From Lepidodermella squamata (lineage: Eukaryota; Animalia; Gastrotricha), in NCBI GenBank assembly GCA_047495785.1, contig JBLDXI010000060.1:372001-436000 (forward strand): a stretch of 64,000 nucleotides of DNA. The letters run 5' to 3'. The position numbers and the translations under genes were made by a program. The notes beneath the pieces were generated by a model, which was not told where the DNA came from, did no database searches, and saw only the letters and a list, made by a program, of their open reading frames with translations. This document shows, one piece after another, positions 24,301 through 54,726 of the stretch (its first letter is position 1; each line of letters starts with the position of its first letter).

Positions 24301-24731
24301 TCAAATCGTCGAAAGCTGGCGGCGAAGATGTCGCGAGCTTCAACAAAACTCACGTCGCGAAATTAGTGCCGCTGGGGGCACCGCTGCCACTGTTTCAACT
24401 GCCTGCTCGAGTCGCGGCCTTCGTCGCTGCTGACAACAATGGCAACGATGGCGTTGTTCAAAATCGCCCCGGAGATGGCGCTAACATTAACGATCAAGAC
24501 AACCACGCTGTCATCGACCTCCTCGAAGACAACAACTACGAGGACGCGAACGACGTCGACATCTTCGACGACAACAACAACCAAGACAACAACGAAGTCG
24601 TATTGAACGGTGTCGGTAACGGTGATATTCTTGCCGGGAACAACAACGAGGGCCTCAACATAGCCCCGGCGAACGATGAAGTTGAAAACCAAGTTGAAAA
24701 CGGAGTCAACAATGCTGTAGATGACGCCTGA
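21332..24731 (+). CDS. Putative OB-fold + Cys-cluster protein with acidic N/D-rich tail (exons 21332-21348, 22230-22487, 23711-24731); probable Helitron accessory gene
   Basis: Both introns have strong donors (GTAAG, GTGAG) and join in frame. Beta-rich GIIISIK...YLYLIFLT...VFVVKV...LSPGTVVALSRP pattern; C-x3-C-DG-x5-CxC cluster. Confidence 0.6.
21371..21956. mobile_element. MITE with ~50-bp inverted ends, inside intron 1 of the OB-fold gene
   Basis: CCCAACCTATTTCACCCAACCGCGCACTCGCTCAA (~21378) is inverted at ~21915-21949; no TSD seen. Confidence 0.7.
22844..23402. mobile_element. Mutator (MULE)-type MITE with 9-bp TSD, inside intron 2 of the OB-fold gene
   Basis: TSD TTGAATTAC at 22835-22843 and 23403-23411. 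TIR GACTTTTCAGCAGTGACA..TCAGCAAATGAGGGTCAAAT; many CAGTGAC subrepeats. Confidence 0.88.
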
Positions 24732-32957: not shown

Positions 32958-33495
32958 TTTCTTGACTATTATTTATATCATGTCGAATGAAGCTTTACGT
33001 TCCAAACTCCATTTTCCGCCGACCCAGGCAGTAATAGGGTAGAGATGCCGCCTCAATGCTCGGCTATGCAGTTAAATAGCCACCGACGTTGGAAAAGTCG
33101 GTATAAACTTCCACCGTCCCGGCTCAGACGGCGAAAAGGACCACGTCTTGGTGAGACGGTAAAAAAAACTCCGACGATGGGAAGGTCGGTAAAAACTTCC
33201 CAAATGAGGGCTGAGCAACCAGGGCCCTCACTGTGAGTTATCACAAGTACCAAGCTGGAAGGGAACCTGTGACGATCTCTTAGGCATCTTGAGGTCAGAG
33301 GTTTTTCGCCCATTTTTCCAATGCTCAAACCGTGCTTGAAATTCCAATAAATTAAAGAATGAATGAATGGTGGATTAATCATGAAAATTAGATAATTGAT
33401 TGGCGAGGCTTGTTTCCCATTTAGAAAGATTTTAACTGGTCAATTTCGACTGATCATTCACTTCTACTACTACTACCTCTACCACTGCTACTAAA

Positions 33496-36066
33496 ATGAC
33501 AAGATCCACTTTCGATAATAGCCAGAAGCCCCCCAAAAGCAAGTCAGCAACGTGTTCAAAATGCGGCAAAAGTGGCTTCAAGATATCTAGTCATTGCTCT
33601 CAATGTAACGATCACCATGCCGCACGACCTTGCCCAGCTGCTGCGACCTCAAATACAGCTGCGCCGTCAGTGGGTTCCGAGGTGCCATCGGTAGTGCCTG
33701 GTTACCAAACGGCGGGATCTCCAGCAGGTATGTAATGGATTTGCATGATAGCACAACTGTTTTTTATATTTTTTTCGCCATAAGCAGGCAGTAAAAGTTC
33801 TATGGGCATTTCAAGTGAATTCTCGGGGCAAACAATTTAGAAATTTACAACGTCAGTATTTCAGAAAATCTCGCGTCATTCTTCTTAGTTGAGGAAAGGG
33901 ATGATGACAACATCAGAAAAGGGGGAATGAGTTAGAATTTTTAATAATTTTTAAATACTTCCGCGTTTAATAATTTTTAATGATTTTTTGAATAATTAAT
34001 TTGAAATTGGTGACATTTTTGATCCAGACATTCAAGGCAATAACGACCGCGTTTCGTCTACTACGCCGCAACAATCGCCGCCACCAATTGGAACGTCAGC
34101 TTCTGAGCCGGAGTCTCAAAATCATCGTCGCTCTTTTGCTGATGTCGTGTCCGGCCGAATCGGCATCGCTGGACCGGATTTGGCCAGGAGATTGGCGGGC
34201 GACGCATTTCCTTACACTGATTCAGCCTACAACAGGGATGATGGTGCTACAAGTGAGTTTTTGTTAGAAGTGATCATTAATGGCCTGAATGTTGCGCGTT
34301 CTGGGACATGACTTGATTTATTTGATTCGAAATTGCTATTTACCGATATTTTTGCTTCATTTTTTTCTTCTCTCCAAAGGTTGAAATGCCACATGTAAAA
34401 ATTTTTCGCGGTCATTAATTTTCCGTTTGATCTCTTCATTCGGTGTTTTTCTGGGAATACTGAAATTTAAATTAAATTAAATTATTAATTCTTTCTTAAA
34501 TTACCATATTAATTTTGTACTCAGCGGGCAACCTAAAACCAAAGTTAAATCCATTGAAATTCAATGTACTGGCCATAATTATCCAAAACCAAAATTTAAT
34601 GACCGCCGTATTAAATTAGTGGATTTTGTACTATACAGGGTGTCTCCTAAGTAACGCAATCAAATAAAATACACGGAAAAAACGATCAAAAACTCTAAAA
34701 TGAGAGACCAAGTCACATCTAATGGCCGGAAAATATTCGAAAAAATTCAAAAATCACCAAAATAGTAATCAAGAATATGGCATGTTGGTGGGATTGGTCA
34801 AACCGGGTAAAATACCGAAAATTACTGAACCATTACCATCGGGATTTTCCGGGTATTCTCGGGTAAATTTAGAATTTATTGGTTAAATCGCGGGTAAAAT
34901 TTGGATTATTCTCTCAGCAGGTTTGATTTGAATATAATTAGTTTAATCTCCTAAAAAAGTTGTTTCATTAAAAAATGATGCGCAACTTTTAGGACACTCT
35001 GTAGTAGTAGTATGAATATCCACTCAATTCACTTTTAGATTCAAATTCATTTTAGATTTTCCATCGATTTCAGTGAATTAGAAAATAAATTCCGGGACAT
35101 TTTTTAAATTTGGAATATTCAGATGTAGCAACTGTCGGAACATAGCTAGTATTAGTTTTGTGGAGCGTTATATTGTGATCGAAACGAACACAAATTTAAC
35201 CTCGCTGAAATTCCACGCTTTATTTCAAGTTATTGCTCAATTAACTTGGCGAAAGTTTCTCAATTAGGGAACTTTTGCTCGAAAATAGGTGACCGAGAGA
35301 AGCAAACACGCTGCAAATTATGGTATTCTGCTAAATTACTGCTGATATTAGCGGGATTATTCAGTAAATCCTTGACCAAAGCAGCCGAATAATGCCCTAT
35401 TTTATAGATTGCTTGGCAGTTTCACCTGACATCGCCTTGATGATTCCAGCTGCATTGCCACCCCTTCCCGATGGCGAATGGTTGAAGGAAGCAGCTCGAA
35501 TCAATAGGCTGGAAATTGTCGACAACCCTGCTCGAGGCGACTGCCAATTTTACGCAGTTTCCGACGCGGCCAGGCGTGTCGGAATTGTGTATGATTTCAT
35601 GCAGCTGCGGAGGTTAGCCCAAAGTCGCCTTTCTACCGGCTCCTATGACCACCTGTGGGCCTACGACCCTTTGGCGATGCAGGATGCGAGGAATTGCGGC
35701 CAGCCATTGCCTAGTACGAGTATGGCCGAGTTGACACGGCGTATCGGCATGCCTGCGAGACATGGCGGGGACTGGGGCGATAACATTTCCTTGTTATCGG
35801 TCGCAGATGGGCTTGGGGTTACCGTCAAGTTGTTCGATGCTAGAAGCCGAAACATTTTTTCCTACGGAAATGGCTCGGCTGTTATTCACATTGCGTACGA
35901 CGGCAGTGGGCACTATGTTGCTCTGTTACCAGTGTTACGTTCTGAACCTGAAAGACCAGATCAATGCTCAATTAGCAGCCCGATGGAAATTCCGGCTCCA
36001 AGATCCGCGGCCGGTGTCCATTCAGTGGAACCAAATTGCGGAGCCAAATTTCATTTCGGGAATTAA
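33496..36066 (+). CDS. Zn-finger + OTU cysteine protease protein (exons 33496-33727, 34028-34252, 35409-~36013/36066); N-terminal part of a Helitron-like polyprotein
   Basis: CSKC...HCSQCNDHH...C; phase-1 introns with GTATG and GTGAG donors join in frame. OTU catalytic motifs NPARGDCQFYAVS, WGDNISL, HIAYDGSGHY. Further upstream exons (~33.0-33.2 kb) are possible. Confidence 0.8.
34636..35001. mobile_element. Tc1/mariner-type MITE in intron 2 of the OTU gene
   Basis: TA|CAGGGTGTC...GACACTCTG|TA: TA TSD with imperfect TIRs. Confidence 0.75.
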
Positions 36067-36908
36067 TTGGCTAAAAATTCGTTCTCCAAATTTGCTCTTA
36101 TTTCACGATTAATTTGAAAAAATTGTAAGTTATGATATTATCTGTGATTTTTACTACGTATAAGGCAGGTAAAATAATAAAAATAAAAATAATTCAAAAC
36201 AAATTTATAGTATCAACTAGGCTTCCTTGATGATTTCTCGTATTTTTACCTTTCATGATTCGACGTTGGTTATTATTTCTTGATGCGCAAAGAGAATGGG
36301 CGATTTTTTAGCTATCAATTAATAATTATACTGCAATTTGTGTGGGGAAATTTGTCAAGTAATACCTTGAAAAATAATAATAAAAACACCAAAAATGGCG
36401 TCTCGACAAATTTCCAACGCGGAGAAGCCTTGAGTTCAAAGTCGTTAGCAGCCAGGAAAGCACAAAAATTCGGTCGGAAACAATTACGAAAACTCTTCGC
36501 GAAAAATTTGCACATTTGTTTCAATCGCGATTAAATTCGCCCAGGCACTGAATAAAGGCTAGGCATCCTATCCGGTAAGACAGAAAATTGATCACGTTGG
36601 GAATGAGTCGCAAATTACCCACGTTAACAGGATTTAATTGTTTTAGTTCTCTCAAAATCACGATAAACTGTTAAAATAAGTAAAAACAAGCTAATCACTG
36701 TTATTTAACAATGGAGTAATTACCATCATTTACCATTCGATGAAAACTTTCTTCACTTATCGAAACGTAACAGATTAGTTTATTTGAACTCCATGGCTTG
36801 GTCCAGCGTTTAAAATGTTTCACGCCATTTATTCCAAAACATTTTCAACTCCTTTTTAGCTACAATTATGAAACAATTATTAATGGATTTTTCGCCATTT
36901 TTCAACAG

Positions 36909-39900
36909 GTGTCGTCGGAGCTGTATTCGATCCTAATAGGACACGATACCAGTTTGCTCAAGCATGGCGGTTATTCACGCCCGAACAGTGTCAGCTGGCT
37001 CGCGAGTACAGAGAATCCAACCTTGTACCGGGTGCAACAGAAAGATTCAACATCAGACCTGCGGAATTGCTGATTTTCTACAACGTCGACATCTTTCATC
37101 GCGTTTTTGTTTTCGTCCCAGCAGACAAGAAAGCTGAGCTGTTGGAAGACCCAACCAAATCTCCATTTATAGACGCACTCGGTCGGCACTATAAAGTTCG
37201 CAAATGCAGCATCAAACTCGGCTTGGAGTTTCTGCTAAAACAGGATCAAGATCACCCAGCAGTTGCACCGCTGCTTGCCATCTTCATGGCGTTAGCTCAA
37301 GGTGATGTTGAAATGACGACTCGCTACGTAAAACCGACTAATTCTGTCGCCGCCGTCACCGTTCCGTCAAACGTCACACCGAACAATCGCTTCAAGTTTC
37401 TTTACCATTGTATTATGACGCTTGGCTCGATGGAGAATGAACTGCAGGCGATCGCCTTTCGCGACATGCGGCGAAATTTTGCGAACGTCGGCCTTGTTAC
37501 CTATGACGAAGCGAACGATACGTTTCCCAACCTGGAGGCTGAAGTGAAAAACATTTTTCGCCGGCTTATCCTTGAACAGCTGGCCTGGATGCCTGTGTCG
37601 GCGAAAAAGCTGGGAATGTACATCGAGAAAATTCGTGCGATATTGCATGATTTCTTTTTCGTTTCCGGAAGCCTGGATTCCGATTATCCCTCCATTTCTT
37701 CGGTGATTTTGAAGGCCAGAGCATCTCAACAGATCGAAAGTGCTGAGAGGCTCTACCGCGAAGTCCTGGCCGAGGTGACACACGGACAGCTTACTGGTAA
37801 ACTGGATCTCCCTCCGCTGGCTGATATCGTCGAAGCCAGTGTCGCTAATCCTGTTCAATGGCAACCGGTTCTTCAGCGATCGCCAGGTTCTATATTTAAA
37901 ACATTCTATGTTGCATTGTTAATAAATTCTCTTTTTCCAGGTCAAACTGATGCCTCGCTGGACCAACAACGTGAAGCTTTGTCTCACGCTCTACGCAAAA
38001 TCGATTTTTTGCAACAACACCGAGCAAAGTTTAATCATTCCGTTTTCGTCGGTCCTCCGGGTGCTGGAAAAACCTATCTCCTTCAAACAGTTGTTCTCTA
38101 TGCAATGGCTAGAGGTCACAACGTTTGTCTCACGGCGCTGACTTCGGAGCGAGCGCGTTCACTGGGCGGACGTCACCTGCACCTGGTGTTCCCAATGCGA
38201 GTCAACACATCAACTTACTCGCACGCTATTCTCGAGTCTCAGGACTGCATTATGGCGCTCGGCAGGGACCCGGTCAAAGCCCAGCTCATCTACCGGACAG
38301 ACGTCTTCTTCATTGAAGAAATCGGTTTGGTATCAGCGGAGATGTTTGCCCTTCTCGACGCTGTACTTCGATATACAATGGGAAATGACCTCAAATTCGG
38401 CGGCAAGCTTGTCATTGCAACAGGTTCATTTCGGCTATTTTTTTAATTTCTCTGACACTTGTTTTCTATTCTAACTGTTTAGGTGACTTTGCGCAACTGC
38501 AGCCAATCAAAGTATGCTTATTTTTTCAACTTGTGATGTTTTTTACTCTATTTTTCTCAGGGTCGGCCGTTTTGGGTATCCAGCAGCCTGATGTTTTCGT
38601 TCGACGTTGTGATGCTATCACACTATGTGAGAGCCGCGCAGGATCCTCAACTTCAAGGCATCCTCGACCTTTTACGCCAGCCCAGTCTAAATGACATCCA
38701 GCGTAACGAGGTGTCCCAAACGATCTTGGCAAGAGCTCGCTTTTACAACAGCTGGGACGAAGCGCCTGACAATTTGATTCGGATAGTGACCACGCGGGCG
38801 GCTGAAAAAGAAGTTATCGAAGAGTTCATTGCGAGAAAACGCCGGCAGGTTGCTGTTGTTGACTGTGAGTCGATAGACGAGTTCCAATCGGGTTCACAGC
38901 CTTTCATGGCTACGACGAATCAGAATTTCATTAGGAAGCTCGATAAGATTTGTCTTGAACCTCGAAAGCTGTCGTTGTTTGTTGGCGAGCTGCTCTGCAT
39001 GACCTACAACAACATATCAAACGAACCCATGCAGACGTTCTCGCAAGGTCAGCTTGCCATTGTCGTCGCTATCCCGGACAACATCAAGGATAGGCAGGCT
39101 CGTGTCACTGTTCGGCTTGTTCCGCCGGGCCAGCGAGCAGCGGCTGTTGTGGATCCTACTTGGCCTCTCATACAAGTCCCGCGACATGCTGGGATGCCAA
39201 TCATCGTTGGCCTTGATGCTAAACGCGCCCGCCGAGTTCAGTTTCCCTTCCGCTACTACGTACATTTTTCACGCCTCTTCATGTACATGTTCAAAATCAC
39301 ATTCTTTTTCAGCTTTGCACGACGGTCCACCGAATTATGGGCACTACTGTCGAAGAGGGCGTAGTTATCCAGGTGTCCGATGTCGTCAGGTCACAGCGCA
39401 TGTGGGAAAAGGCGCAACTGCTGGTGATGGTGTCTCGGTGTCGTAATTTGGACCGTGTCGGTTTTGTCACATCGAGCCAACAAGCTACGGCTAATGCGAT
39501 CGATTCGATATTGACAAAAGACAACCCCTACGATGGCGCCATCATGTCTCGATTGGCTCAACTCGACATCCTCACCGTCCGGCAGCCTGTGGTTAGCATC
39601 ACCGACCCGGTCTTCTACGTCACAAATTCGGTCGTGCCAATCGTTGACTGGGGCGTCGTTTACCACCTGATTTCGGAAACGCGCCCGTATGTTTCCTATA
39701 TTGGGCAAACTGAACGTTCGGCCGAGGAGCGCCTCAGGGAGCACAATAATGGTAACGGCGCCAACTTCACCCGAGGTGACAAGTGGCTATTGCTTGGCAT
39801 AGTCTATGGCTTTACCTCGGATGAGGCTCGCATGCGACTTGAGCGGGACATCCACCGTGCTCTGAGACCTGATCTTCTGCCATGGCAAGTTCGTGCAGTT

Positions 39901-40118
39901 GTCATCGATCAGGTGGACGAGACAAGCGCGAGACAAGCTTTCCTTCGGAGATTGGCCATTGTCACCTTTGGACGGCTGAACGAAGCGAAAGTAACGCAGC
40001 TGGCGAACGGGCGTGGCAACGAAACACCACTGGCTCATGTCCGAGATGTATGTTTTTTGTTCGTCATCTTGTGATCTTCATGTTCTTAATTGCTATAATA
40101 TAGGTGCGATTCGAATAA
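36909..40118 (+). CDS. PIF1/SF1B helicase fused to C-terminal GIY-YIG nuclease (exons 36909-37886, 37941-38423, 38483-38511, 38561-39259, 39313-40047, possibly 40104-40118)
   Basis: GPPGAGKT, FFIEEIG, FGGKLVIATGDFAQLQPI, VRAAQD...ILDLLR, RVQFPFRYYLCTTVHRIMG, QLLVMVSR; then VVYHLIS...SYIGQT...RLREHNNGNGANFTR...W..GIVYGF. All introns are 49-59 nt, GT-AG and in frame. Confidence 0.88.
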
Positions 40119-41816: not shown

Positions 41817-42280
41817 GGGGAGCACGTGGCTTAATGGTTAAGCGTCCGCAGTGCTTTCTCAGAAGGTCAGTGGTTCGCTTCCAAGTCGCGGCGCGTGTGT
41901 AACTGAGCAGAGCACTTTACCCCTACTGCTACGGCTGAGTGGCAGCAATACCCTTGGTCGCCGATCCTTCTCGTCGGAACTAATCACCTCGGTCAACAAT
42001 AGCCGAGCGAAGCCTCACGACACTAGTCTAGGTCGGTATGGTGCCAATGGAGCTTGCAGTGTCGCACTGTGCAAAAGATGGACGCCGACACGGACAGCAA
42101 TACCCGTTGATCTGCGCCATCACACCCTCTGGTTCACACCCTATACGGCGCAGCAACCCGACATCCTCTGCCTTCGGCCAGCAATAGCAACTAGAATAAC
42201 AATTGAGCGTCTGTGACGAGTATGCCTTACTATGTGCTACAATCATGCATATGATAATTGCACGCCAATAAAGTTTATAC
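41817..42280 (+). mobile_element. tRNA-derived SINE
   Basis: Pol III A box TGGCTTAATGG (41827) and B box GGTTCGCTTCC (41872); non-tRNA body; AATAAA near 42268. The 3' end is approximate. Confidence 0.6.
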
Positions 42281-42491
42281 CTGCTATTTGACCCAAACTG
42301 CCTTTGAAAATTCGTCTGAATTTGTCGCTATTGAAGTCTCATTCAACTCGAAAGTGTTAAAACTTCTAAATAGCTGGTAGCGGTAGGAAAACCGATTCTC
42401 AGTTTTTTCTAAAATCTGCTATAAATCTGTTGAACGTCGAGTCGTCGACGGCGGCCATCACGCCCGCGCCGTCTCACTACCAGCATCCTAC

Positions 42492-42573
42492 TGTAAAGTT
42501 GAGAACAAGTCAGAGATAATTTCAACCCAAAAAACGAGAGCGTTTATTAAATATCATTTCCATCTTTAACAGG
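42492..42573 (-). repeat. Truncated LTR end matching the Gypsy LTR at 53294-53371
   Basis: TGTAAAGTTG..AAGTCAG.GATAATTTCAACCCAAAAAACGAGAGCGTTTATTAAATATCATTTCCATCTTT is shared; differs by a 5-bp indel and a few other changes. Confidence 0.85.
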
Positions 42574-42868
42574 TTTTAGAGCGGTTTTTAGTGAAAAATC
42601 TTCACTATTTCCTCGCTTCGCTCGTTTTTTGGTTGAAATCAGGGCGTGGTCAGGGTGGGGGGTTGGGGTATAAAACACCCCCCAACAAATTCCTGAAAGT
42701 GGTCTCCAACTACAATTTTCCTTTAAATCCTCCATATTTTACTGCATTTTAAGCCCATTTTCGGGTTGAAAATACCCGAAAAAAGCGTCAGCTAAAGCTC
42801 GCTTCGCTCGCAAATAGACTTGAATAGGTTTTAGGCCGCAAATTTTTCGAGCCCGAGGGTGGTAACTC

Positions 42869-42970
42869 ACTCGACACCCATTCGACACCCACTCGACACC
42901 ATTCGACACCACTCGACACCATTCGACACCACTCGACACCATTCGACACCACTCGACACCACTCGACACA
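42869..42970. repeat. Tandem array of 10 x A(C/T)TCGACAC(C)
   Basis: Directly visible 10-11 bp units upstream of the YR cassette genes. Confidence 0.95.
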
Positions 42971-43256
42971 TTCGCCTGCGGCGGCCATATTATTTTACAT
43001 TAATTGTTAAAATAAAATAATATAAATAAATTTATCTCACTATTTTTTATATTAATTTTTGATATTGTTCAAGAATAAAATTTAAAATGAGTCGTTAGCA
43101 ACATTAAAAACTCATTAGCAGACAAAAGACAATAAAGACAATGCGGCACCGTTGCGGAACCGTTGGCTCCCGTTTCATTTGAATTTAAACCTGGTTTAGC
43201 TCTGCACTACTGTATTTTACACTGTTCTTTCAGTTTACAGTTTTCAGTCCTTCATT

Positions 43257-43598
43257 ATGGGCCGCAAGTTTAACCCTTTCGATCCATTTAGCTGGGTTAA
43301 CAGTGACTCAGTAGATACCATTGATTCGGAATCAGTTACTCAATCAACAGCTCAGACCACTGACTCCGAGTCTTTTTTTCAAAACACCACGACGTCAGTT
43401 TTCAGCCTTCAAAACAACTCTACTGCACCATGCCCAGTGGAGGCATATGAGATAGTCATATTTTGTCTATCCTTGTTCTTGCTCGTGGCTGTTGTCACCT
43501 CAATTGTTTTCGCCTCTCGTCGCTTCCGGTGCAAATCTAAGAAGCGGTCTAACGATGCCGAGCAACTGCACTACAATCGCCTTGACTCTCAAGTTTAA
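43257..43598 (+). CDS. Small single-pass membrane protein (113 aa)
   Basis: S/T/D-rich N-terminus, TM IVIFCLSLFLLVAVVTSIVFA, basic juxtamembrane SRRFRCKSKKR, C-terminal YNRL (YxxL). Confidence 0.65.
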   Translation: MGRKFNPFDPFSWVNSDSVDTIDSESVTQSTAQTTDSESFFQNTTTSVFSLQNNSTAPCPVEAYEIVIFCLSLFLLVAVVTSIVFASRRFRCKSKKRSNDAEQLHYNRLDSQV

Positions 43599-43795
43599 TG
43601 TTTGTTTTTTTATATTTAGCTGTTACGATGAACAAGCACGAAATTCTTGCATACTCTAACAAAGATCAATCCATCTTTAGATCGACAGAGCTGAGCCGAT
43701 CCGAACTCGAACTGACTATCTTGCAATACGCCCTTTCGCTAATCATGGCAGTGCTGGTCGGATTCGTAATTGCCCGTGCTCTCAATATGGACTGA
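43598..43795 (+). CDS. Very small C-terminally anchored membrane protein (65 aa, or 55 aa from Met 43628)
   Basis: TM ILQYALSLIMAVLVGFVIA; overlaps the upstream stop as TAATG; AATAAA at ~43970. Confidence 0.45.
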   Translation: MFVFLYLAVTMNKHEILAYSNKDQSIFRSTELSRSELELTILQYALSLIMAVLVGFVIARALNMD

Positions 43796-44021
43796 CATTG
43801 TTTCCAATTGAATAATATTATCCTTGGATCGTTTATATCAAATTAACATTTGAAATGCCTGTATCAAATTACTTATCATCATCCTACGACGGTGAATCGC
43901 TAATCTTGTCGTTGTGAATCAAGAGTTAACAGATATTTAATATTTAATATGCTCAATATTCTTGAACTCAATAAACGTTTCTTACAATTTCATTGTGTTT
44001 TAGGTTTATTCTTATTACTTT

Positions 44022-44901
44022 ATGTTTTCACTTCCGAAGGCTTTTCAGCTTTGCGTCTACTTGATGCTCCTTACGGATTCGATGGGCTATCCTGCCAGCG
44101 GAGAGTTTCTGCTTGACATTTTCAAGCTCAATAGAGACGACCAAGGTCATATCGTGCGGAAGCGTGATACCACGATTGCGAGAAAGCCGGAGATATTGGA
44201 AGTTGCTAGCGGTCTTCAATACTACCGTGCGTATCAAACCGGGTCTAACAAGTGTTTGGCAAATTTCACAAAAATTGGTATGGCTCTATTGTTATCACTT
44301 GCTTGTTTTTATAAGATTGGTCTTTCAGCGGAGAAGATGTGCGAGTGGCCGCTTCCTACTGAAAAATGGGATGAGTTGACGATGAAGCTCATGTCTTGTT
44401 TCGTGAGACATTCCTGTAGCACTATATCTTGTGTGATGACTCTACCCGAAGAAGATATTCGAACGTGGGCAACTTCTTTCAGTTTGGTCAGCCCTTTGTG
44501 CGCTTACCTCGCTACTAACGGTACACATCTTTCATTGGCCGATTCGCTTTTTGATTTGGAAGCCTACAAAAGTTTTGGCATGAAAGCTGCTGAACTTGCT
44601 TCTACTGTATTTAACGTCGCGAGCAAATCTATTCATTTCTTTCGGCGTGAGATCGTTTATATTTTTCTACTATTTGGCGCGAATTGCATGGACTTTGTCG
44701 TCTTCTCTTTTCAATCATATACATAACATCTTCAAAAAAAACAAAAAAGTCCAATTCACCCCAACCAATCAGCCTCCTCAAGAGACTGTGCCTCTCATGG
44801 AGTCTAGCAATGAAATAATGAAGCAAGGCATTTTGAAGGCGAGTAATTGTTCAGGTTGCTCAAATTGTGGACGACGAATTTCAACCAGGAAACGGAATTG
44901 A
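44022..44901 (+). CDS. Signal-peptide + Gex1/Kar5/Brambleberry-like cysteine-rich domain + TM protein (probable intron 44278-44328; frameshift near 44680)
   Basis: Spliced sequence SNKCLANFTKIAEKMC...ELTMKLMSCFVRHSCSTISCVMTL...WATSFSLVSPLCAYL has the six-Cys spacing of the Gex1/Kar5 domain. Hydrophobic N-terminus; the TM near 44650-44710 continues in the adjacent frame into a basic tail. Confidence 0.55.
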
Positions 44902-45105
44902 TTGTAAATTGATGCATTGTGACTCTGCGTGTTTTGACATTCGATTCGCTTTTGTGTCGCGGCTTTTTATACCCATTTTATACTATGTTATACTCAATGC
45001 TCTTTTCTCTTTTTTCATGCTCTGACATGTAAGCTCATTAAATTTCCTCAATTTAATCAAAATGATTCATGTGGTCTGATTTTTTTTGTCGATTTTAGAG
45101 AATTA

Positions 45106-47283
45106 ATGTCCCAGTTTGTTTTCGGAGACTTGCCTTTTCCGCTATTCTTGATGGATCCCGAAGATCGATTTGAAGAAAGCAGCGATAATTTCTCAACGAT
45201 GCAGGCAACTACGAGCGAAACGACTCGATATCACGATGCCCTTGCTGACCGAACGAATACTTGCTCGGGAAATATTTCAAGTCACTTCGCTAAAAAGAAG
45301 TGCCGACCCCGCGCTGGTAACGGAAAATTTGCTCCATATTTGCCTTTCAATGAGCGGAACCGCAAGGATCGTCATCTGCAACGCTACTGCGTTTTTTGCG
45401 GAAGCCCGAAGAGCACGAAATTCCTCAAACAGCATATCTTGCGCTACTGCCCGGAGACTGCCGGTCGTCGATCGTCCGATGAAGTCATCAAAGCTGCAAA
45501 CTATGTGCGCAAGGCTGCTATCTTTCAAGGATCCAAACATGGACTAGCCCATCGTAAAACACCATCTGCCCGAGGTGTGAAAAGGGTGAATTTTTCAACT
45601 AATTCCGAATCATGTCATCGTTCGGCGCAAATGGATTCGACAGAGATTTCACAAGGATCTTGCGTTTGCTCAAGAATCAGTACGCCGAAAAATGCCCATT
45701 CTCAAGGATTCAGCGATAATGGAACTTCGAATTCCATCTGTACTTGTTCGGAAAGCCAACGCCGTGCTCCAGTTGCGTGCTCTACACCTGCTCTTCAGAA
45801 TATGGATGCTGATGTCTCTCATCCAGTCGATTTCACATTCAACAGCTCATTTGATCAGTCCAATTGTTCGGGTGAGAACGAGTATTTCGGTGACGATGGC
45901 GCTGTCTCCTCTCGGCAGCAGAGCGAATCTAATATTTCACATGTTCAGACTTCGAATGAAGGCGTCGTATTGGACGACACTTATTTCGATGAATCGTCTG
46001 ACGAAGAGACATCAGGCGAGGCGACGTTGTCAAAGAAATTAACCCGTATCGCGCTGTCTCCAAGCCCAATTAAGAAGACGAGAAAATTGAGTAAAAAATA
46101 TGTCACCAATGATCCTCGCTTGAAGCCGGCCCTCGAGCATTATAAAGATCCAGATTTTAAAATGGAAGCAACGCAAGATGATCGCAATGCTAAAACTGTT
46201 CGATCGCGTTATTCCGGACTAACCGGCATCCTCAATTTGGCAGGCATATTCACTGTTGAGGATATGCTCAATGTTGACAAATGGTTCGATTTCGCGGCTC
46301 GTGAGGATCGATTGATTACGACAAATTTACGCGGTGGGGAAGAGCCAGTCTCGTGCCACAGTCTCTACATGAGATTCATGGCTTTAAAAGACTTCTTGCA
46401 AATGTTTCGAGACAACTTCCTTTTACCGAGACGTCTTGTTAGCGAATCGGAGCGTGAAAAAATCGATTTCATCATTACCAGATTCCTTGACCCGAGGATC
46501 AAGCAGTGCAATGCTAAACGTGGCAAGGCACAGGCTGCGCTGAAACACGAAAGAATTGATGAAAAGGTCACTATTCATCTAGCGCCACAATACGCTGAAT
46601 TCATTTCGCAGACGATCGCCGAGATGGAGAAAGCAGGCCAAATTGTGCCGTATGCCTTTCGAATTGCGAGAATTGTTGTTAAAATGAACGCCTTCAATGG
46701 CTGCCGCCCTTCGAGTCTCGCAGGCATGAAGGAGGCTGAATTCGATAAGCGATTTTCCGAGATCCCGGGCACTTGGACAGTTCATGTCCTGGAGACGAAG
46801 AACGGTAAGCGGTGCTTCCCCTACGTTACGATGGACCAGGAACTTGTGGAACTCTACGACGAATACCGCCGCAAGTTCCGGCCGAAGCCGGCTGACCCTA
46901 AAAGCGCCAAGTATTTACTGCTACGAAGTGATGGCAAGAGGTTTGATTGCTTGTCCTACTACGCAAGTATTTTGTGGGACAAATTCGTCCTAACTCTTCC
47001 ATCTACTGCCCGACCGAGTCTCGCATCATATCACTTTTCAATGCAAAGGCGCATGATGCAGACAAGTTCTCGCCACAATCAAATTCCTGGCTTGACTCCC
47101 GCCCAACAGAAACAGGTCAACCGCTACCTCCACCACACCGATGGCGTTGCCGAGCAAATCTACGAGCAATTTATTTCACCTCAGGAACATGCTGAAATTT
47201 TCTTGAAATTTAAGGAATTTCTCAGTTCTCAGAAAAAACCCAAACAATCGCCAAGAAAAATGCCTAGATCAAAGAAACCTTGA
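45106..47283 (+). CDS. Tyrosine recombinase (phage-integrase fold) with N-terminal C2HC Zn finger, 725 aa, intact
   Basis: CVFC-x12-H-x4-C; catalytic set NGCRPSSL (R), VLETKNG (K), SMQRR (R), YLHHTDGVAEQIYEQ (H...Y); AATAAA at 47511. Confidence 0.88.
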   Translation: MSQFVFGDLPFPLFLMDPEDRFEESSDNFSTMQATTSETTRYHDALADRTNTCSGNISSHFAKKKCRPRAGNGKFAPYLPFNERNRKDRHLQRYCVFCGSPKSTKFLKQHILRYCPETAGRRSSDEVIKAANYVRKAAIFQGSKHGLAHRKTPSARGVKRVNFSTNSESCHRSAQMDSTEISQGSCVCSRISTPKNAHSQGFSDNGTSNSICTCSESQRRAPVACSTPALQNMDADVSHPVDFTFNSSFDQSNCSGENEYFGDDGAVSSRQQSESNISHVQTSNEGVVLDDTYFDESSDEETSGEATLSKKLTRIALSPSPIKKTRKLSKKYVTNDPRLKPALEHYKDPDFKMEATQDDRNAKTVRSRYSGLTGILNLAGIFTVEDMLNVDKWFDFAAREDRLITTNLRGGEEPVSCHSLYMRFMALKDFLQMFRDNFLLPRRLVSESEREKIDFIITRFLDPRIKQCNAKRGKAQAALKHERIDEKVTIHLAPQYAEFISQTIAEMEKAGQIVPYAFRIARIVVKMNAFNGCRPSSLAGMKEAEFDKRFSEIPGTWTVHVLETKNGKRCFPYVTMDQELVELYDEYRRKFRPKPADPKSAKYLLLRSDGKRFDCLSYYASILWDKFVLTLPSTARPSLASYHFSMQRRMMQTSSRHNQIPGLTPAQQKQVNRYLHHTDGVAEQIYEQFISPQEHAEIFLKFKEFLSSQKKPKQSPRKMPRSKKP

Positions 47284-47618
47284 ATTAGCTTCGTTAATAT
47301 TTTCGAATTCCTCGTGAAAGCTCTTATTCAATGCTTTTTGCATGTAAATGATTGCCTATTGCCAGTTCTTGTAAATTGTTTGTAAATTTCTATTACTCAT
47401 TCGAACTTATTGTTGACGTCATGGAAACATCCGCACGGATCCGCAATATTTATTACTTAATTCATTTTTTTTTATAATTTATTGGTTCTTAATCATTCGT
47501 GCAATATCAGAATAAAGACGACGTGGTTTTAAATAAGTCTTTTTCATGTATCCGGTGATTTTGTCGGGGAGAAATGTTCCGGCTGTAACAAAGACAGCGT
47601 CACCTAGCTGACGGAATT

Positions 47619-50600
47619 TCACGAATATTGTGCTAAGCTAGAGCCTCGGATAGAATAATCAGAATGCCTTGCAAATTTCGCTGAGTTCGCTGAGTTATCA
47701 AAACCTTGCCGATTTATCAAAATGGTGTCGAGTGAGTTATATATTGATAACTTATCCAGAGGAACCAAGGTTTTGCCTGGTTTAAGTTTGATCATGGCGC
47801 ATTTGAGGCAAGAAGTGCACCAACTCATGATGTCTACTCCCATGCCTGGCCAGAAGAATTTTGCTTGGATACTAGCGAGGGTTTTACCTGCTCCTAGATG
47901 TCCAGCTGCTGGGATCGAGTGGAATAGGTGGAAAATTTCCCCTCTTCGCTTTCTCGGTAATACGATCAAATCTGTATCGTTTTTCATATCGCGGAGAACA
48001 CAAACACCAAAGTGAGAGGAACTTGTTGATTCTGGGGCTCTTCCACTTCGTGAGTGGTTTGCCGGAGCGATTTATTACTGCTTCGCAAATTTTTCCGATT
48101 TCGGGATCGTCGAGCTGCTCTTTGGCAAGCGCGTCCATTTCCCAAGCTAAGGCATCAGTGAATTTGATCGCGTTGATCAGTTCTTGTTCTGGACTAATTC
48201 TGGAAAGTGCATCGGCGATCACTTGGGTTTCGCCCGGCGCATACTCGATATCGAAATCAAACTCATTAAGCCAAAGTATCCATCTGTGGACTTTCGGAGA
48301 AGGCTTTTTGCAAGTTTTTAACCAAGTTATTGGCTTATGATCTGTGATCATGGTGAATTTTACACCTTTTAAGTAATCGCTGAATGTCTGGGTTGCCCAG
48401 TATAGGGCGTATGCTTCGCGTTCTGTTGTGATCCATTTCTGCTCAGCTTTTGTGAGGGGCTTACTAGCATAGGCCACTGGCCTTTCGCCTTCGCCTGAGT
48501 CTTGCATCAGGGTGGCGCCCACACTAAAACTAGAGGCATCGGCGTAAACACGGAATGGCAGTTCATAATTTGGAAGTGCTAGTACAGGTGCTTCTTTCAA
48601 AGCTGCCTTGAGCTTCCAGAACGCGGTTTGACATTTCGAATCCCACATGAAGGGAACGAGATCGCTCGTCATTTCTGACAATGGCTTAGCAATTTCTGCA
48701 TAATGTTGTATGAATTTACGGAGATGACCTGTCATTCCGAGGAATCTGCGTAACTCTTTTCGAGTCTTTGGCGCTGGGTAATCATCGATTCCTTGTGTCC
48801 GCTTGGGATTTATTTCAACTCCCCACCGGTGAATTATCTGACCGAGAAAAGGGATGGAAGTTTCAGCGATGATGAGTTTTTCCTCCTTCATTGTTAAGCC
48901 AGTTTTGGCGAGTTTTGACATGACGGTGTCGACGATGTCGAGATGTTCATCAACGGATCCTTTGTTATGCACAATAATATCGTCAACGAAAACTGTACAT
49001 TTCTCATCCGCAATTTCCTCACGCAAAATTTGGTCCATGACACTTTGAAAAATTTCGCTTGAGTTATTCATGCCAAATGGCAAAGCACATAGCTGATATT
49101 TCCCCCACGGTGTCTCAAACGCAAGTATGCCACGTGAGTCCGGGTGAATGGGAATTTGGAGAAATGCATCTTTCAGATCGATTTTTGTGAAATATGTACA
49201 CTGACCCAAACGTTCGAAATAGTCAGCTGCCGTTGGCAAGGGATACCTGAATCTTTTGATATTCTTGTTTTGCCGTTTGAGGTCGAGGCATACTCGAGTT
49301 GTGCCGTCCTCATTCATGACGAAATGAGGTGGCGAGTTGTGTCTGCTCAGACCTGGTTCAGGCTCGGCTTTGCCGTTATCAATCCACCGGTCAAGGGTCT
49401 CTTTGAGAATACGCTTCTGCTGAGGATTCATTTTTCTGGGAGGCTCAAAGCTTATGAGTTTCGGATCGATTAATTCAATTCTGTATCCGAATTTTTCCGC
49501 CATACCAATCCTGTCATTCTTGCCAGAGACATAATTTTGGTATTTTTCTTTCAGGGCAAGGATCCTTGGATCATCCCGTGCGATGGCTGGAAATTTTTCG
49601 AGACTGGCCTTCAGTTGGGCTTGAAATTCTTCAGGCGCCAACGTTTTGGCGGAAAAGGGCTTTTCAAGCGCAGTGAGCTCATCTCTGTCCTCGTTTTCTG
49701 AGGATGATTCAGAGATTTTACGCTCTTTAGGCTTCCGGGTTCGTTTCTGCTTCGGCTGATGATCGTCCGCACTAGTAAAAATAAGTTATTAGCTAGCAGG
49801 GCTAGCTAGTCGCTAGCTAGCTCACTGTTTCAGCACTATGTATAAGGTGGGATATCTAGCGCGCAATGAAAAGTTGCTAGCTAACGGATCAAGTTGCTAA
49901 ATAGCGCAACGCTTAGACGCGAATATTGACAAGCTGCTATAGAGAGCTACCTAGCAGGTTATTTCGTAATCTAGCTGCTAGCTAGCATATGATCGTGCCT
50001 CGATGCGCTATCTAGCAGGACCTGAAATTCAAATACTTCCCGCCAACCGCCATTTTGGATTTTCACCTGCTAGCTAGCCCAAAAATTCAAATTTTTAAGC
50101 TAGCTAGCCCAAATATTTGAATTTTCAAGCTAGCTAGCGCACATCTCTCGCACAACAGAACTTGAATGCCTTGACATTGTTACATTTTCTCATTTCAAGT
50201 CAACTTAAACTTAGAGCATCAGAACTCCGGCTAGGTATTGCGGTTACTTTCTCTGTTTTCCCGCCCGTTTTCATACGAAGTAATGTATCGATATTTGTAT
50301 TTTTTAGATCATAGCTACGATAAAAGTTTACCATCAAACGCGACGCGGCCAGCAGCCAAGGATCGCTCTATGAACTGGTTTTTACATCGCTTTTATCTTT
50401 TATTTCAGTAACAAAGTAAGTAACAGTTATTTGATAATTGCTGAAATCTAATTTTCTTGCCTGTTTTTAGTTCTTGCAACAAGCTGTTTGATCCTATGCA
50501 ATATCAATAGATGCGCTGTACTAGCCGCGGTGGCTGTTCAAATTCTAATACTGCTGCCTAACTGCTCTCGTCGACTATCGTTATCTTCGGCCATTTAGTA

Positions 50601-51774
50601 TTTTTGTTATTGCTTCTATGTCATGTTAACGATCGTTCTCGAGTGCTATGTTATGCTTCTGAAATTACCAAGTTGTTATTTTGCGCTAATGACAAATGAA
50701 TACATGCTATCTAATAAAAAAGAAGGTTCAAAAATTGACTTGACTGTAATTAACTTAAATTACGAGAAAACCAGGAAGGAGAGGATAGCGGGGTGGCTAG
50801 CTAGCCATGAAAGTTATAAAACTAGCCAGTCCTGCCCTATTTAGCACCCAGTGCTATATAGTGGGATGGCTAATATAGCAGCCTGCTAGGCAACGCAACT
50901 GCTACATAGCGCGCCTTGTTACTATTATCTAGCAACTTTCTACATAGAACATCGTGCGCTAGTTAGGGGGGCACCAGGCTTATATATAACGGGTTACTAG
51001 CTAGCAAGTGAAGTTTCTAGCTAGCGCAAGACGCTAAAACTAACTAGCAGCTTATTTTTACTATTGCGCCGTTCCCGGAACCTTGTCATCACTGTGTGAA
51101 TTTAGAATTTAGAATTTGTTCGAGGTGTCAATTGAGTCATTGTGACTTTGCTTCGGTTGTTTCTCTACGTTGTCTGCAGGTTCAGGGGCAGTCAAAGCAG
51201 TCATGACCGTGTCTTTGTTGCCTAGGAGTGGGAATTCTCCGAAAATTGTGTTCAAAGTGTCGGTGACTAGGTCAATCTTGGAATGAACTCGTCGCAAAAA
51301 GTCCAAACCAAGAATAATTCCTACACCGGTGCCTTGGCAAACTGCGAATTGGTTTGTGAATTTTTTATTATTTATGGACAAATTTATTTGTATTTGACCT
51401 AGGAGTGGCAAGGTGCGACCGTCTACACCCGTTGCGACGCTACTACCTGGTTGCTGCCAAACTTGGGCTTGCTTTTGCAATAAATTCACGACTTGTTGCG
51501 ATACAACTGAGATCGTGGCTCCTGTGTCTACCAGAGCTTGGAATACCAAGTTGTGCGTACTAATATTGATTAGGCACGGTTTCCGGCGCGTGTGGTGAAT
51601 ACCATTAAGAGAATCGACACAAGAAATATGATAAGAGGCATTTGAGAAAATTAATTTTTTATTCGAGGATTCACATGGATTTGATTTTTTAAGAGTTTTC
51701 ATAAACCTCAGTTTCTTCTTCAGCTTCCTTCTCTTCTCGGCCCTCGGCGGCGGTCGACGCGTCGGACCGACTAA
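47619..51774 (-). pseudogene. pol: Gypsy pol (aspartic protease, RT, RNase H, integrase HHCC), interrupted
   Basis: ALVDTGAT; KIDLKDAFLQIP, LPFGMNNS, FVDD; YADAS, EREAYA, TDHKP; H-x5-HLG...C-x2-C. Stop at 51109-51111, insertion at 49770-51066, frameshift near 48000. Confidence 0.92.
49770..51066. mobile_element. Non-autonomous CACTA/EnSpm-like element inserted in Gypsy pol
   Basis: TIR CACTAGTAAAAATAAG / CTTATTTTTACTATTG; 2-bp TSD CG; many GCTAGC palindromes. Removing it restores the pro-RT reading frame. Confidence 0.88.
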
Positions 51775-51780
51775 TTTAAA
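51729..51780 (-). promoter_or_regulatory. -1 programmed ribosomal frameshift signal (gag-pol)
   Basis: Slippery T_TTA_AAT (51780-51774) lies just before the gag stop, followed by GC-rich self-complementary TCGGTCCGACGCGTCGACCG...GGCCGA. The -1 frame is open into the protease ORF. Confidence 0.75.
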
Positions 51781-53178
51781 AAGGAGGCGTCGTACCCTTC
51801 ACGAACACAACCTTTCTCAAAGTCGCGACGGAGGTCCAGGCAGGCCGGGGCCAGATGATTGGCTCGGCCGCAGTAGGAGCAGTTCTGTGCGTGTTTGCAG
51901 TCCACTGATCGGTGCCCCTGTTGACACCACAAGCACCGGAGCGTAGTGCGCTGGCGCTTGTTGTTGTTGGCAGCGCTGGCGTTGGCGTTGCTGCTGTTCG
52001 TGTTGTTGTAGTAGCCGGCATGATGGCCGTTGCCGTTGTTGCCATTGTTGTTGCGGTCGGGGAACCCGGCGCCGCTGGCGCAACTAGTGGCTGACTCTTG
52101 ATGCGGATGCCGGCCGGAGGCGTTCGTAGCTCGGTCGCGGAGCTGTCGCTCGATGTTGGTGATCCGGGCGGCGATGCCGTCAAACGCCTTTTCCATAGCG
52201 GACTTGGCCGTCTTCACTTCTGAAATAGGGCAAACAATGTTTTTAATTTTGCTTGATTCCCTATAAGCTGACAATGCCAAAGCTACCGTACAGTCGAATG
52301 TGGACTTTGTAGCTGTTGTGAGGGCTAGGCGGACTTTGTCGTCGGCCAGGCCTTCATGGAAAGTATTTATCAGGGTATCAACTTCCACGCCGAGGCGCGC
52401 TGCAAGTAGGCGAAGGGCCGAAGCATATGCTTCGATCGACTCGCCTGCTTGCTGCGTCATGGTGTACAGGTCCTTCATGGAGGAAGAAGAGCTTTTTGGT
52501 TCGGGGAAAATTTTGCCGAATTCAGTAATTGTCTGTGCGAAAGTTCACATTCTTATGTTTGATTTCCTTGAAAATTTCTTCCGCATTGGTGTCCAATTTG
52601 GAGTAAAAGTAATCCTCAATGTTTGTGGGTGGTATTTGTAATAATTTGACGCTAGTCGTGAAACGGCGATAAAATGGTGGGAAAGGGGTCCCTGCCAAAT
52701 AAATATCATTACCTTGGATCACAGCGCCGAGGGCTACTGCGATATTCGGCACGGGCGCTTGTGGCGCTGGTGGTGGCGCTGGTGCTGAACGGGCTGCCGC
52801 TTGGGCCGCTTGGCCGTGCACCAAGTGCTGTAACGCTTGGCTGATGCTGGCGAGCGTAGTTTCCACTTGGCTCGCACCTGGGTTGAGCTGTTGCTGCGGC
52901 TGTTGTTGGAGCTGGTGCAACTGGCGTTGAAGCTGATCGATGTGAAGCTGCTGCAAACGCGCTTGCCATTCCGAAGGCGCATGGCCTTGCGGCTGGCTGT
53001 GGTCTGGCAGCTGGGCTTGACCTTGGCTTTGGCCGATGGTGTTTCGGTGGAGGTGAGGCCACAACAAATTTTGCTGCGGTTGCTCTTGATGCTCTTGATT
53101 CTGACTTTGTTGTGGGCCTTGGCCGGCGGGCTGAGCCGTTGGCTCTTCGACGCCCTCCCCACGCTCCTCATCGGACAT
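51771..53178 (-). pseudogene. gag: Gypsy gag (frameshift near 52550)
   Basis: Q-rich N-terminus, QQAGESIEAYASALRLLA capsid motif, two Zn knuckles CLWCQQGHRSVDC and CSYCGRANHLAPAC. Confidence 0.85.
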
Positions 53179-53869
53179 GGGGACCTCAACATTTAGATTT
53201 TCGTTGTTCTACATGATTTGAAAGAGGTAAATTTTACTAGAAATGAGAAAAAGGATTATAGGAAAAGTAAACGGTAGTTACCGGTGCCACCAATGTAAAG
53301 TTGAAGTCAGTGATAATTTCAACCCAAAAAAACGAGAGCGTTTATTAAATATCATTTCCATCTTTTATAGGCTATTTTATCATTATTACATAATTTCACG
53401 TGTCAGCGAAACGCGTGACACGAAGCGGAACGAAACGTGCGGTAGGTCGCGTGAAACGGAAAGGGCGACCAACCCTACACTACTACCAGCACTCAGTCAA
53501 CAGAAGACCCACCTGCAGCAACAAAGACTCCATCCCCGGTACCAGTGCCGCTAGCTACCAGCCATCACTAACAGCGTTGAACCCGAAAATGACTCAGTCA
53601 TAACGATAGCCGATGTTGACGCTTCAGCCGCACCTCGCGCTATGAAAAAAAGATTTGCTGCCAAATTTACGGCAAGGGCCTGATCGAAATCGAAAGCCGT
53701 TCTGGCGGCGCTTGGGTAACTGTTCTGTGCGACAACTCGAATATGGTAACGTTACCAAAAGGAATACAAAATTTTGACTTTTTTCAAACACTTGCTATTT
53801 CCTGACTATGAGGTTCATAGCAATGACCATGAGGGCCATGATGTTATTTTGACGAGCAACAATCCGAAC

Positions 53870-54726
53870 AATCCGAATAGTGGTTAAAAACGTAGAAACG
53901 GACAAACCGCCCGAAAATCCTGATGATTCCCAGTTAAAAATAAACGGGGAGAGTCTAGAAAGAATAAATACCTTCAAATATCTAGGAAGCATAATTAGCT
54001 CTGACGGTACTTGCACTCTGGAAATAGAAGAAAGAATGCAAAAGGCCGGGTCTGGTTTCGGGGCATTAAACAAATCCATAAATAATAAATCGCAAGTCAG
54101 TATCCCTGCAAAAATGAAGGTTAAGCGAGCTGTAATGACTCCGACACTCCTCTACGCTTCTGAAAGTTGGAATGCAACCGCAGCTCACCAACTGAGGCTG
54201 GATGTTGTGCAGATGAGGTGGCTTAGGGCTATAGCCAACGTCACAATTATGGATAAAATCAGAAATGATGACATAAGAAAAATCTGTGAAGGTATAGAAC
54301 CTATCTCAGCTCAAATAGAACATAACCGACTACGTTTCTTAGGGCACATTCTTAGAATGAATGACGATAACCTAGTCAAGCAAGCATACTTATGGACCCC
54401 ACCCAAGGGCTGGCATAGGAAGTTAGGCAGGCCCAGGGTAGGATGGGATTATTGTAACACTCAAAGCTTATTGCAAGCAACAAATCTTGAAAATTACAAA
54501 AATTTCGTAAGCGTCTACAATGAAAAATGTCTAAATTGGGACAAAATTGAGGAGACAGCTTGTGATCGGTCTAACTGGAGGGCCTTCATTCGCGAACTTC
54601 TGGCCTTCAGGTCGCGGGGAACGGAATCTACTTGACTTCTCGCTCTCGCCGTCGTTAAAACTTTATTGTATGCCTCACCAACGCAAAACGACGATAAATA
54701 AAAACCAAATGATGATGATGATGATG
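53870..54726 (+). mobile_element. 5'-truncated RTE-like LINE (ORF2 C-terminus 53880-54635)
   Basis: FKYLGS, PTLLYASESW, RLRFLGHILRM, GRPR..W, DRSNWR; (TGA)n tail; TSD ACAATCCGAAC at 53859-53869 and 54727-54737. Confidence 0.9.

Follow-up and report, generated by a model that had tools for sequence, protein, structure and literature searches.

How does a DNA element that is moved by a tyrosine recombinase (YR) come to carry genes for membrane proteins, and might one of these proteins help the element to reach a nucleus? The question is raised by a cassette of four genes in the gastrotrich Lepidodermella squamata (assembly GCA_047495785.1, contig JBLDXI010000060.1, positions 372,001 to 436,000 of the forward strand; this stretch of 64,000 nt is referred to as the window, and all positions given below are positions in it). 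The cassette encodes two small membrane proteins (open reading frames ORF1 and ORF2), a Cys-rich protein (ORF3) and a YR (ORF4), and it lies within a Gypsy retrotransposon. The cassette probably constitutes a young YR element of its own. For YR DNA transposons of eukaryotes, movement in the form of circles is the common assumption, which raises the question of how an acentric circle survives mitosis and enters a new nucleus. The whole account considered here, a young, multi-copy element of ~5.2 kb which is excised as a circle and whose membrane genes serve the nuclear entry of this circle, is tentative and stands at slightly less than an even chance.

Extent, copy number and ends of the cassette

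The cassette comprises the following features:

42567 to 42862, plus strand: likely left end of the YR element, with GC-box-like and TATAAAA promoter-like sequence; the match to the Gypsy long terminal repeat (LTR) stops at ~42567-42573
42863 to 42978, plus strand: array of ~10-nt repeats with the core CTCGACACC, in five exact copies
43257 to 43598, plus strand: ORF1, 113 amino acids, with a Ser/Thr-rich N-terminus, one transmembrane segment (TM) and a basic patch
43628 to 43795, plus strand: ORF2, 55 amino acids (65 if the upstream ATG at 43598 is used), with a C-terminal hydrophobic segment
44022 to 44901, plus strand: ORF3, Cys-rich, 234 amino acids in the window frame 44022-44726, with a predicted signal peptide
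45106 to 47283, plus strand: ORF4, tyrosine recombinase, 725 amino acids
47284 to 47751, plus strand: 3' untranslated region and right end, with AATAAA at 47511, the inverted motif at 47724-47739 and TAAC at 47748-47751

One public sequencing run (X1) contains the stretch, with 0.88 of its words; no RNA run is listed for it. Among the matches listed, one X1 contig of 5,080 nt covers 42932-47748 including all four ORFs, has a depth of 254.8 and shows 0 differing letters over 4,817 nt. It ends at 47748, which is 9 nt beyond the inverted motif. The left host junction is covered by a contig with a depth of 49.3, and contigs with the Gypsy integrase finger and pol have depths of ~100-114 and 19 differences in 2,006 nt (~1%; Fisher p 7e-11 for 0/4,817 in the cassette vs 19/2,006 in the Gypsy). 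Because of the depth of 255, the lack of differences and the contig end next to the inverted motif, the cassette is likely a separate, young and multi-copy unit. An initial annotation of this DNA had suggested a YR-encoding unit distinct from the Gypsy, and the single contig with all four ORFs, its depth and the difference counts support this view. Contig depth, which according to the tool's own warning is no copy number, and the difference counts would correspond to ~2.5 to 5 copies of the cassette that are nearly identical and postdate the Gypsy. No joint linking the right end of the cassette to its left end was found among the joints listed (15 of 22, plus one), and contigs drop rare forms.

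The four plus-strand ORFs of the initial annotation are real and have the hydrophobic segments described there; all three poly(A)-like signals are likewise present (AATAAA at 43970 and 47511, ATTAAA at 45037). The right end, initially placed at 47545, is instead found at ~47748-47751, as indicated by the end of the high-depth contig and by the inverted motif. The first 16 nt of the left array (42863-42878) are repeated exactly, in inverted orientation, at 47724-47739, and the only other occurrence of the 9-nt core CTCGACACC in the window is the inverted copy at 47724. From its sequence, the left array is predicted to contain arm-type binding sites of the recombinase. TAAC is present at 42567-42570 as well as at 47748-47751, and this pair may be a crossover repeat or may have arisen by chance. 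At the left side, TATAAAA is located at 42667-42673 on the plus strand and follows a GC-box-like stretch (~42640-42673 overall), a putative promoter, and a donor-like GTAACT is found at 42862. Within 42567-42862, a motif with a high copy number in run X1 is present twice (42779-42812 has high depth). The position of the true left boundary is ambiguous; it is either ~42567-42573 or ~42855-42863.

None of the four cassette ORFs reached the Pfam cut-off; ORF1 has only sub-threshold, TM-type matches and ORF2 has none. Inspection of ORFs and Pfam matches revealed no capsid, ATPase or polymerase ORF inside the cassette, which agrees with the initial annotation with regard to capsid and polymerase.

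The host Gypsy element

The surrounding Gypsy sequence consists of three parts:

42492 to 42573, minus strand: outer remnant of the Gypsy 3' LTR, ending with TACA on the minus strand; 74/83 identical to 53294-53371
47752 to 53293, minus strand: internal part with gag, protease, reverse transcriptase (RT)-RNase H and integrase Zn finger, without the integrase core
53294 to 53479, minus strand: complete 186-nt Gypsy 5' LTR, TGTA...TACA on the minus strand

The cassette had initially been placed between two pieces of Gypsy sequence; instead, it is located inside one Gypsy. A single element spans 42492-53479 and was likely inserted by a DDE integrase, since TGTA..TACA termini are found at both outer ends together with a 4-bp target duplication, CTAC, at 42488-42491 and 53480-53483. 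On the minus strand, the 5' LTR is followed by a sequence resembling a primer-binding site, TGGTGGCACC, and then by gag, protease, RT-RNase H and the integrase Zn finger. gag is distributed over two frames and the Zn finger is encoded in another frame, with a frame change before the finger. Similarity to the Ty3 integrase ends at the CxxC, ~35 nt from the cassette end, and four frame pieces past the CxxC have no Pfam match. The cassette occupies the place of the integrase core, the polypurine tract and U3 and extends through most of the 3' LTR, so that its left flank comprises only ~80 nt of this LTR. Near the cassette, the sole long direct repeat is the LTR pair 42492-42573 and 53294-53371.

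Three other interpretations of this region were set aside. A decayed integrase core in 47480-47745 is not supported, with 0 Pfam matches in four frame pieces and no integrase among the PDB matches. A 5-bp duplication, CCTAC, was dropped for the 4-bp CTAC, which fits the TGTA..TACA termini. Troyka does not apply, as it has an integrase and CG..CG ends in the available part of its description (PMC12440569).

Additional sequence features lie within or next to the Gypsy. The LTR remnant (42519-42538) matches 42621-42639 in the cassette at 19/20 nt in inverted orientation, and a weaker third copy is found at 42758-42774; this match may bear on target choice or on the position of the left end. The Gypsy pol is interrupted by a 1.3-kb insertion (49768-51068), which is bounded by terminal inverted repeats of 29 nt, includes many GCTAGC motifs and is skipped by one X1 contig; it contains the single, sub-threshold Rfam match. 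Just outside the 5' LTR, a 3' fragment of a LINE-like RT ORF was recognized by eye at 53853-54635 on the plus strand, without a Pfam match.

The tyrosine recombinase

Among 1.84 billion representatives searched exhaustively with phmmer, 10 are relatives of the 725-amino acid protein (E 2e-28 to 9e-5, 24-50% identity). All of them are ENA or Logan predictions without a name, and their contigs measure 1.5-6.3 kb. The window protein possesses core-binding and catalytic domains with the catalytic residues R534, K565, R648, H677 and Y686, and the family alignment preserves the Arg (of RPS), the Lys, the second Arg, the His and the Tyr with recombinase spacing. An N-terminal C2HC finger (C95, C98, H110, C115), which is separated from the core-binding domain by a low-complexity linker, is invariant in 7/7 N-terminally aligned sequences, namely the window piece and six of the 10 relatives. 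An AlphaFold2 (AF2) model built from an alignment of 15 sequences has a predicted local distance difference test score (pLDDT) of 79.8; the score from the single sequence is 38.6. The top PDB matches of this model in Foldseek are XerA, Tn1549 Int, XerH, Cre and lambda Int, and all but one of the named PDB rows are tyrosine recombinases. VIA-align gave Z 12.0 to XerH (root-mean-square deviation 5.5 over 277 residues) and Z 11.9 to Cre (4.7 over 269 residues). The PHROG integrase model was matched by two of the five relatives scanned (P0006, E 3e-9; P0007, E 2.5e-6); P0006 is also the only one of the 10 relatives with a Phage_integrase Pfam match, a weak one, and DUF3504 is matched by none. Due to the fold match, the conserved catalytic residues and the PHROG matches of its relatives, ORF4 is assigned to the tyrosine recombinases as a member of an unnamed family that is presumably active. 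The intact 725-amino acid YR of the initial annotation is thus confirmed in ORF and modelled fold.

Standard profiles do not detect this family. The 725-amino acid ORF has no DUF3504, Phage_integrase or GCR1_C Pfam match. Word-index protein searches confirmed 0/3,325 candidates with YR residues 330-715 and 1/7,997 with the YR profile, the latter being itself an input sequence. Scans of viral contigs, JGI metagenomes and prokaryote genomes confirmed no locus; in IMG/VR, the YR, its relatives or ORF3 served as queries. The window harbors a second, unrelated tyrosine recombinase at 58193-58933 on the plus strand, which is Crypton-like and has Phage_integrase and weak DUF3504 matches; profile similarity between it and ORF4 is absent (hhalign probability 0.2%).

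The Cys-rich protein ORF3

In proteins of the Kar5/GEX1/Brambleberry family, the signal peptide is followed by a six-Cys domain, and coiled coils lie between this domain and two to three C-terminal TMs (PMC4291462, PMC7586128, PMC9324357; here and below, statements drawn from cited papers hold for the part of each source that was available). In yeast Kar5, the Cys positions give gaps of 12, 23, 14, 11 and 25, and TM2 extends to residue 504; in embryos, Brambleberry acts in the joining of karyomeres (PMC4291462).

ORF3 contains nine Cys residues, six of which form a putative Cys-rich domain with gaps of 12, 19, 6, 5 and 23. Its N-terminus has a hydrophobic stretch (Kyte-Doolittle 1.1 over 19 residues), which is predicted to act as a signal peptide. 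A possible in-frame intron of 51 nt (44278-44328), whose removal would also delete an internal hydrophobic stretch, leaves the Cys gaps unchanged. The X1 contig has 263 extra letters at 44628, between the Cys domain and the hydrophobic tail, which is the position of the coiled coils in the family. The window copy of ORF3 is therefore likely truncated, or misassembled at 44628. In the window, the ORF3 frame stops at 44726; a second frame, 44629-44901, has 90 open codons that would encode a hydrophobic beginning and a basic tail. Fuller copies would continue in this second frame if the 263 letters contain no intron, and their C-terminal TM may therefore be encoded in this other frame. Either frame after 44628 encodes one moderately hydrophobic segment (1.95 and 1.45), compared with the two to three TMs of the Kar5 family. 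Of the signal-peptide/six-Cys/TM protein initially described, the six Cys form a putative domain, within nine Cys in total, and the gene is probably incomplete in the window.

ORF3 resembles the Kar5 family in its predicted signal peptide, the putative six-Cys domain close to the N-terminus, the similar first, second and last gaps and the hydrophobic C-terminus. Among 200,000 shuffles of the lumenal part of ORF3, 59 passed a Kar5-centred filter, set post hoc, on these three gaps. It differs in that no coiled coil is visible in the window copy and that the gene resides on a mobile element, not at a host locus. Judged by architecture and Cys spacing, a true homology of ORF3 to Kar5, GEX1 and Brambleberry is slightly more probable than not.

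The small membrane proteins and expression of the cassette

ORF1 and ORF2, of 113 and 55/65 amino acids, each contain a hydrophobic segment and thus match the two small membrane proteins that had been annotated. ORF1 has one strong hydrophobic segment (Kyte-Doolittle 3.0; TM at residues 66-84), which is preceded by a Ser/Thr-rich N-terminus (41% S+T in residues 12-60) with three N-glycosylation sequons and followed by seven Arg/Lys in residues 88-97; it is predicted to be an N-out single-pass protein. ORF2 has a C-terminal hydrophobic segment (Kyte-Doolittle 2.4) and is predicted to be a tail-anchored membrane protein.

In Gypsy elements of insects, there are small TM proteins that substitute for Env (PMC11952523). 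Like the sORF2/FAST proteins of MDG1-group LTR retrotransposons described there, ORF1 is small and single-pass, starts with MG, has a basic patch after the TM and is found without Env. In contrast to these proteins, ORF1 lacks the MGxxxS/T N-myristoylation motif (position 6 is Asn) and has a Ser/Thr-rich ectodomain of ~65 instead of ~30 amino acids (PMC11952523). Moreover, ORF1 runs antisense to the Gypsy, to which it likely does not belong.

The sequence TTT[CT]AG occurs nine times in 42700-47620; four of these occurrences are located 7-23 nt upstream of an ATG, two at ORF1 and one each at ORF3 and the YR, and a fifth closes the putative 51-nt intron, with a background of ~4% of positions that have TTT[CT]AG that close upstream. 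The ATG of ORF2 is preceded at 8 nt by T7-ATATTTAG. Poly(A) signals are found 33 and 61 nt upstream of the acceptors of ORF3 and the YR. One promoter at ~42670 could thus feed four mRNAs via alternative acceptors or via acceptors for spliced-leader trans-splicing, which are predicted at 43247, 43619, 44003 and 45098.

Comparison with known tyrosine recombinase elements

By analogy, the cassette would work like a Crypton-type YR DNA transposon with an unusual set of membrane genes. It shares with Cryptons (CryptonA/F/I/S) the YR as sole recombinase, the absence of an RT and a low copy number; a 4-nt direct repeat may flank its junctions, the terminal direct repeats of Cryptons being 4-6 bp long, and a circular intermediate is the mechanism proposed for Cryptons (PMC3212892). 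However, the cassette YR lacks DUF3504, Phage_integrase and GCR1_C matches and has an N-terminal C2HC finger; in a comparison by profiles, not by phylogeny with Repbase Cryptons, it appears to fall outside the Crypton lineage, which is defined by a DUF3504-like or GCR1_C domain. Furthermore, the cassette has a 16-nt subterminal inverted motif and a one-sided repeat array, whereas Cryptons are described without terminal inverted repeats in the available text (PMC3212892), and it carries three membrane ORFs.

An RT-RNase H that shares one stretch with a YR of opposite orientation is reminiscent of YR retrotransposons, namely DIRS, PAT, Ngaro and Kangaroo, the last with an inverted YR (PMC4157794). 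Such elements have neither an integrase nor a protease, and their ends are ITR/ICR or split direct repeats that lack a target duplication. The RT of the window, however, is of the Ty3/Gypsy type and accompanied by a protease, an integrase Zn finger, a primer-binding site, a TG..CA LTR and a target duplication, and the split direct repeats described for YR retrotransposons (PMC4157794) are missing. The juxtaposition of RT and YR is best explained as nesting.

Fungal Starships and the bacterial elements Tn916 and Tn1549 are YR-mobilised DNAs that carry accessory genes, including genes for membrane proteins, and have repeat arrays near their ends. The cassette resembles them as a YR with accessory membrane genes and an array near one end, and the fold match to Tn1549 Int was computed. 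In contrast to these elements, it is far smaller, has no DUF3435 match and no conjugation machinery, and shows eukaryotic splice and poly(A) signals.

Proposed mechanism and alternative explanations

The element, of ~5.2 kb (~5.4 kb in fuller copies), would be excised as a circle by its own YR via the end motifs; excision and integration of a circle are assumed from knowledge of the family, as proposed for Cryptons (PMC3212892). Re-integration into the Gypsy would have been accompanied by loss of the 3' part of the Gypsy. An acentric circle might be excluded when the nuclear envelope reassembles and would then end up in a vesicle resembling a micronucleus; the joining of such karyomeres to the main nucleus is the task of a Brambleberry-type protein. 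Most likely, ORF3 and the two small membrane proteins would help the circle to become enclosed in a nucleus of the germline or the embryo, or to rejoin it by fusion. If true, a karyogamy-type protein on the element would be a testable answer to the question of how the circle reaches the nucleus, and ORF3 would be a minimal, short version of a family whose fusion mechanism is unresolved (PMC4291462). In a more far-reaching version, which is rather unlikely, the cassette would represent an undescribed family of eukaryotic YR DNA elements with its own nuclear-envelope fusion kit, consisting of a Kar5/GEX1/Brambleberry homolog, a tail-anchored protein and a FAST-like protein; such elements would deliver excised circles into nuclei of the germline or embryo, or from one cell to its neighbor, without a capsid and would be the eukaryotic counterpart of a bacterial integrative conjugative element. 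No element pairing a YR with a Kar5/GEX1/Brambleberry-like gene was found in the literature searched, most subscription papers and Repbase being outside its scope.

Several observations speak against this account. Depth and difference figures come from the single run X1, possibly the source sample, and were obtained from 7 of 154 records. The pieces 42612-42889 have depths of 92-118 and not 255, and the left end may therefore lie close to either 42570 or 42860; around the TAAC repeat of the junctions (4 nt), there is no classical pair of inverted half-sites. In the YR, the His of the H-x-x-R motif is replaced by Ser (S645-x-x-R648), and the best Foldseek E against PDB is 0.005 or weaker (none at 0.001 or better). 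The middle Cys gaps of ORF3 are half those of Kar5, and the protein, with ~230-380 amino acids, is shorter than yeast Kar5. The Kar5-centred filter used on the shuffles was set post hoc and left the two middle gaps free. ORF3 has no match in Pfam (including Tht1/PF04163, the Kar5 family), NCBIfam, PHROG, PDB and the protein database, ESM Atlas gave no usable match for the whole protein or for residues 100-205, and a word-index protein search confirmed 0/302 candidates. The Gex1/Kar5/Brambleberry-like identity proposed in the initial annotation is plausible from architecture and Cys spacing, and every profile search is blank.

The alternative that survives best, although it is also unlikely, accepts the same mobile YR element but regards ORF1-3 as passenger cargo, i.e. 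as captured host or viral genes without a role in its spread. No relative of ORF1-3 was found anywhere searched (Pfam, protein search, IMG/VR), and a conserved linkage to the YR family would therefore be conjectural. A young burst of copies would leave passengers intact without selection, and Cryptons are known to carry extra ORFs, for instance a C48 peptidase (PMC3212892). However, the four ORFs are tightly spaced on the same strand with matching acceptor and poly(A) signals and thus resemble a long-streamlined unit, not a fresh capture, and all three extra ORFs encode membrane proteins. Should the membrane genes turn out to be cargo, the C2HC-finger family defined by the recombinase would still be an unnamed one that escapes standard profiles.

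Less probable still is that the cassette is integral to a Gypsy lineage which lost its DDE core and gained an antisense YR and envelope-substitute genes, the differences in depth being caused by pol-less derivatives. The exact position of the cassette, from the integrase core to the 3' LTR, the inverted match that ties the LTR remnant to 42621-42639 and the small TM proteins replacing Env in insect Gypsy elements (PMC11952523) would fit such a lineage. However, the TG..CA termini and the 4-bp duplication indicate DDE integration, and the similarity of the two LTRs is confined to the outer 82 nt, an outcome that is impossible by normal retrotransposition. Moreover, the cassette does not differ from the X1 contig, whereas pol shows ~1% differences, an insertion and frameshifts, and the high-depth contig stops beside the cassette's own inverted motif. 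A Gypsy with a swapped integrase is thus ranked lower than a separate YR element on account of the target duplication, the end motif and the difference counts.

Two further alternatives are improbable as well. Nematode selfish elements encode small TM toxins delivered by sperm, and the membrane genes could likewise form a selfish fertilisation or embryo module, a toxin-antidote pair or a dominant-negative Brambleberry mimic, which blocks the fusion of pronuclei or karyomeres in element-free offspring. Mutants in the Cys domain of Kar5 block nuclear fusion and Kar5 has been proposed to oligomerise (PMC4291462), so that a short mimic could poison a Kar5-type protein; however, no antidote-like soluble ORF is visible in the cassette. 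Alternatively, a larger DNA virus or virus-like element, with capsid and polymerase encoded elsewhere, could have left the cassette as a defective piece or depend on it as a satellite host, and episomes would cause the high depth. This would suit the virus-like, compact multi-acceptor layout and the nudivirus VLF-1 and giant-virus integrases found among many phage integrases in the Foldseek BFVD neighbors (all E 5e-4 or weaker), but the cassette contains no capsid, ATPase or polymerase ORF, the IMG/VR scans confirmed nothing, and both ends are defined within ~5 kb.

Other features of the window

Further mobile elements and candidate elements are located elsewhere in the window. An intron-containing set of ORFs at 33454-40074 on the plus strand encodes a PIF1 helicase (Pfam E 7e-12) and, C-terminal to it, a GIY-YIG domain (E 3e-9); an upstream ORF (35368-36066) has an OTU-protease-like motif by eye and no Pfam match. 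The region has the appearance of a Helitron-related element whose nuclease is unusual. A tRNA-like head, recognized by eye, and subsequent repetitive sequence with high summed depth in X1 are found at 41818-42300 on the plus strand; this is probably a short interspersed nuclear element (SINE), although ARAGORN found no tRNA and neither ARAGORN nor Rfam called it. A piggyBac-type transposase in two frames, with DDE_Tnp_1_7 matches, is located at 55738-57557 on the minus strand. Short introns together with the piggyBac, DUF3504-type YR and LINE-like pieces nearby suggest an intron-containing eukaryote as host, probably an invertebrate animal. Finally, a 361-codon ORF without a Pfam match (23646-24731, plus strand), which encodes a Cys cluster and an acidic, Asn-rich tail, is adjoined by inverted arrays of 14-nt repeats at 22845-23401.

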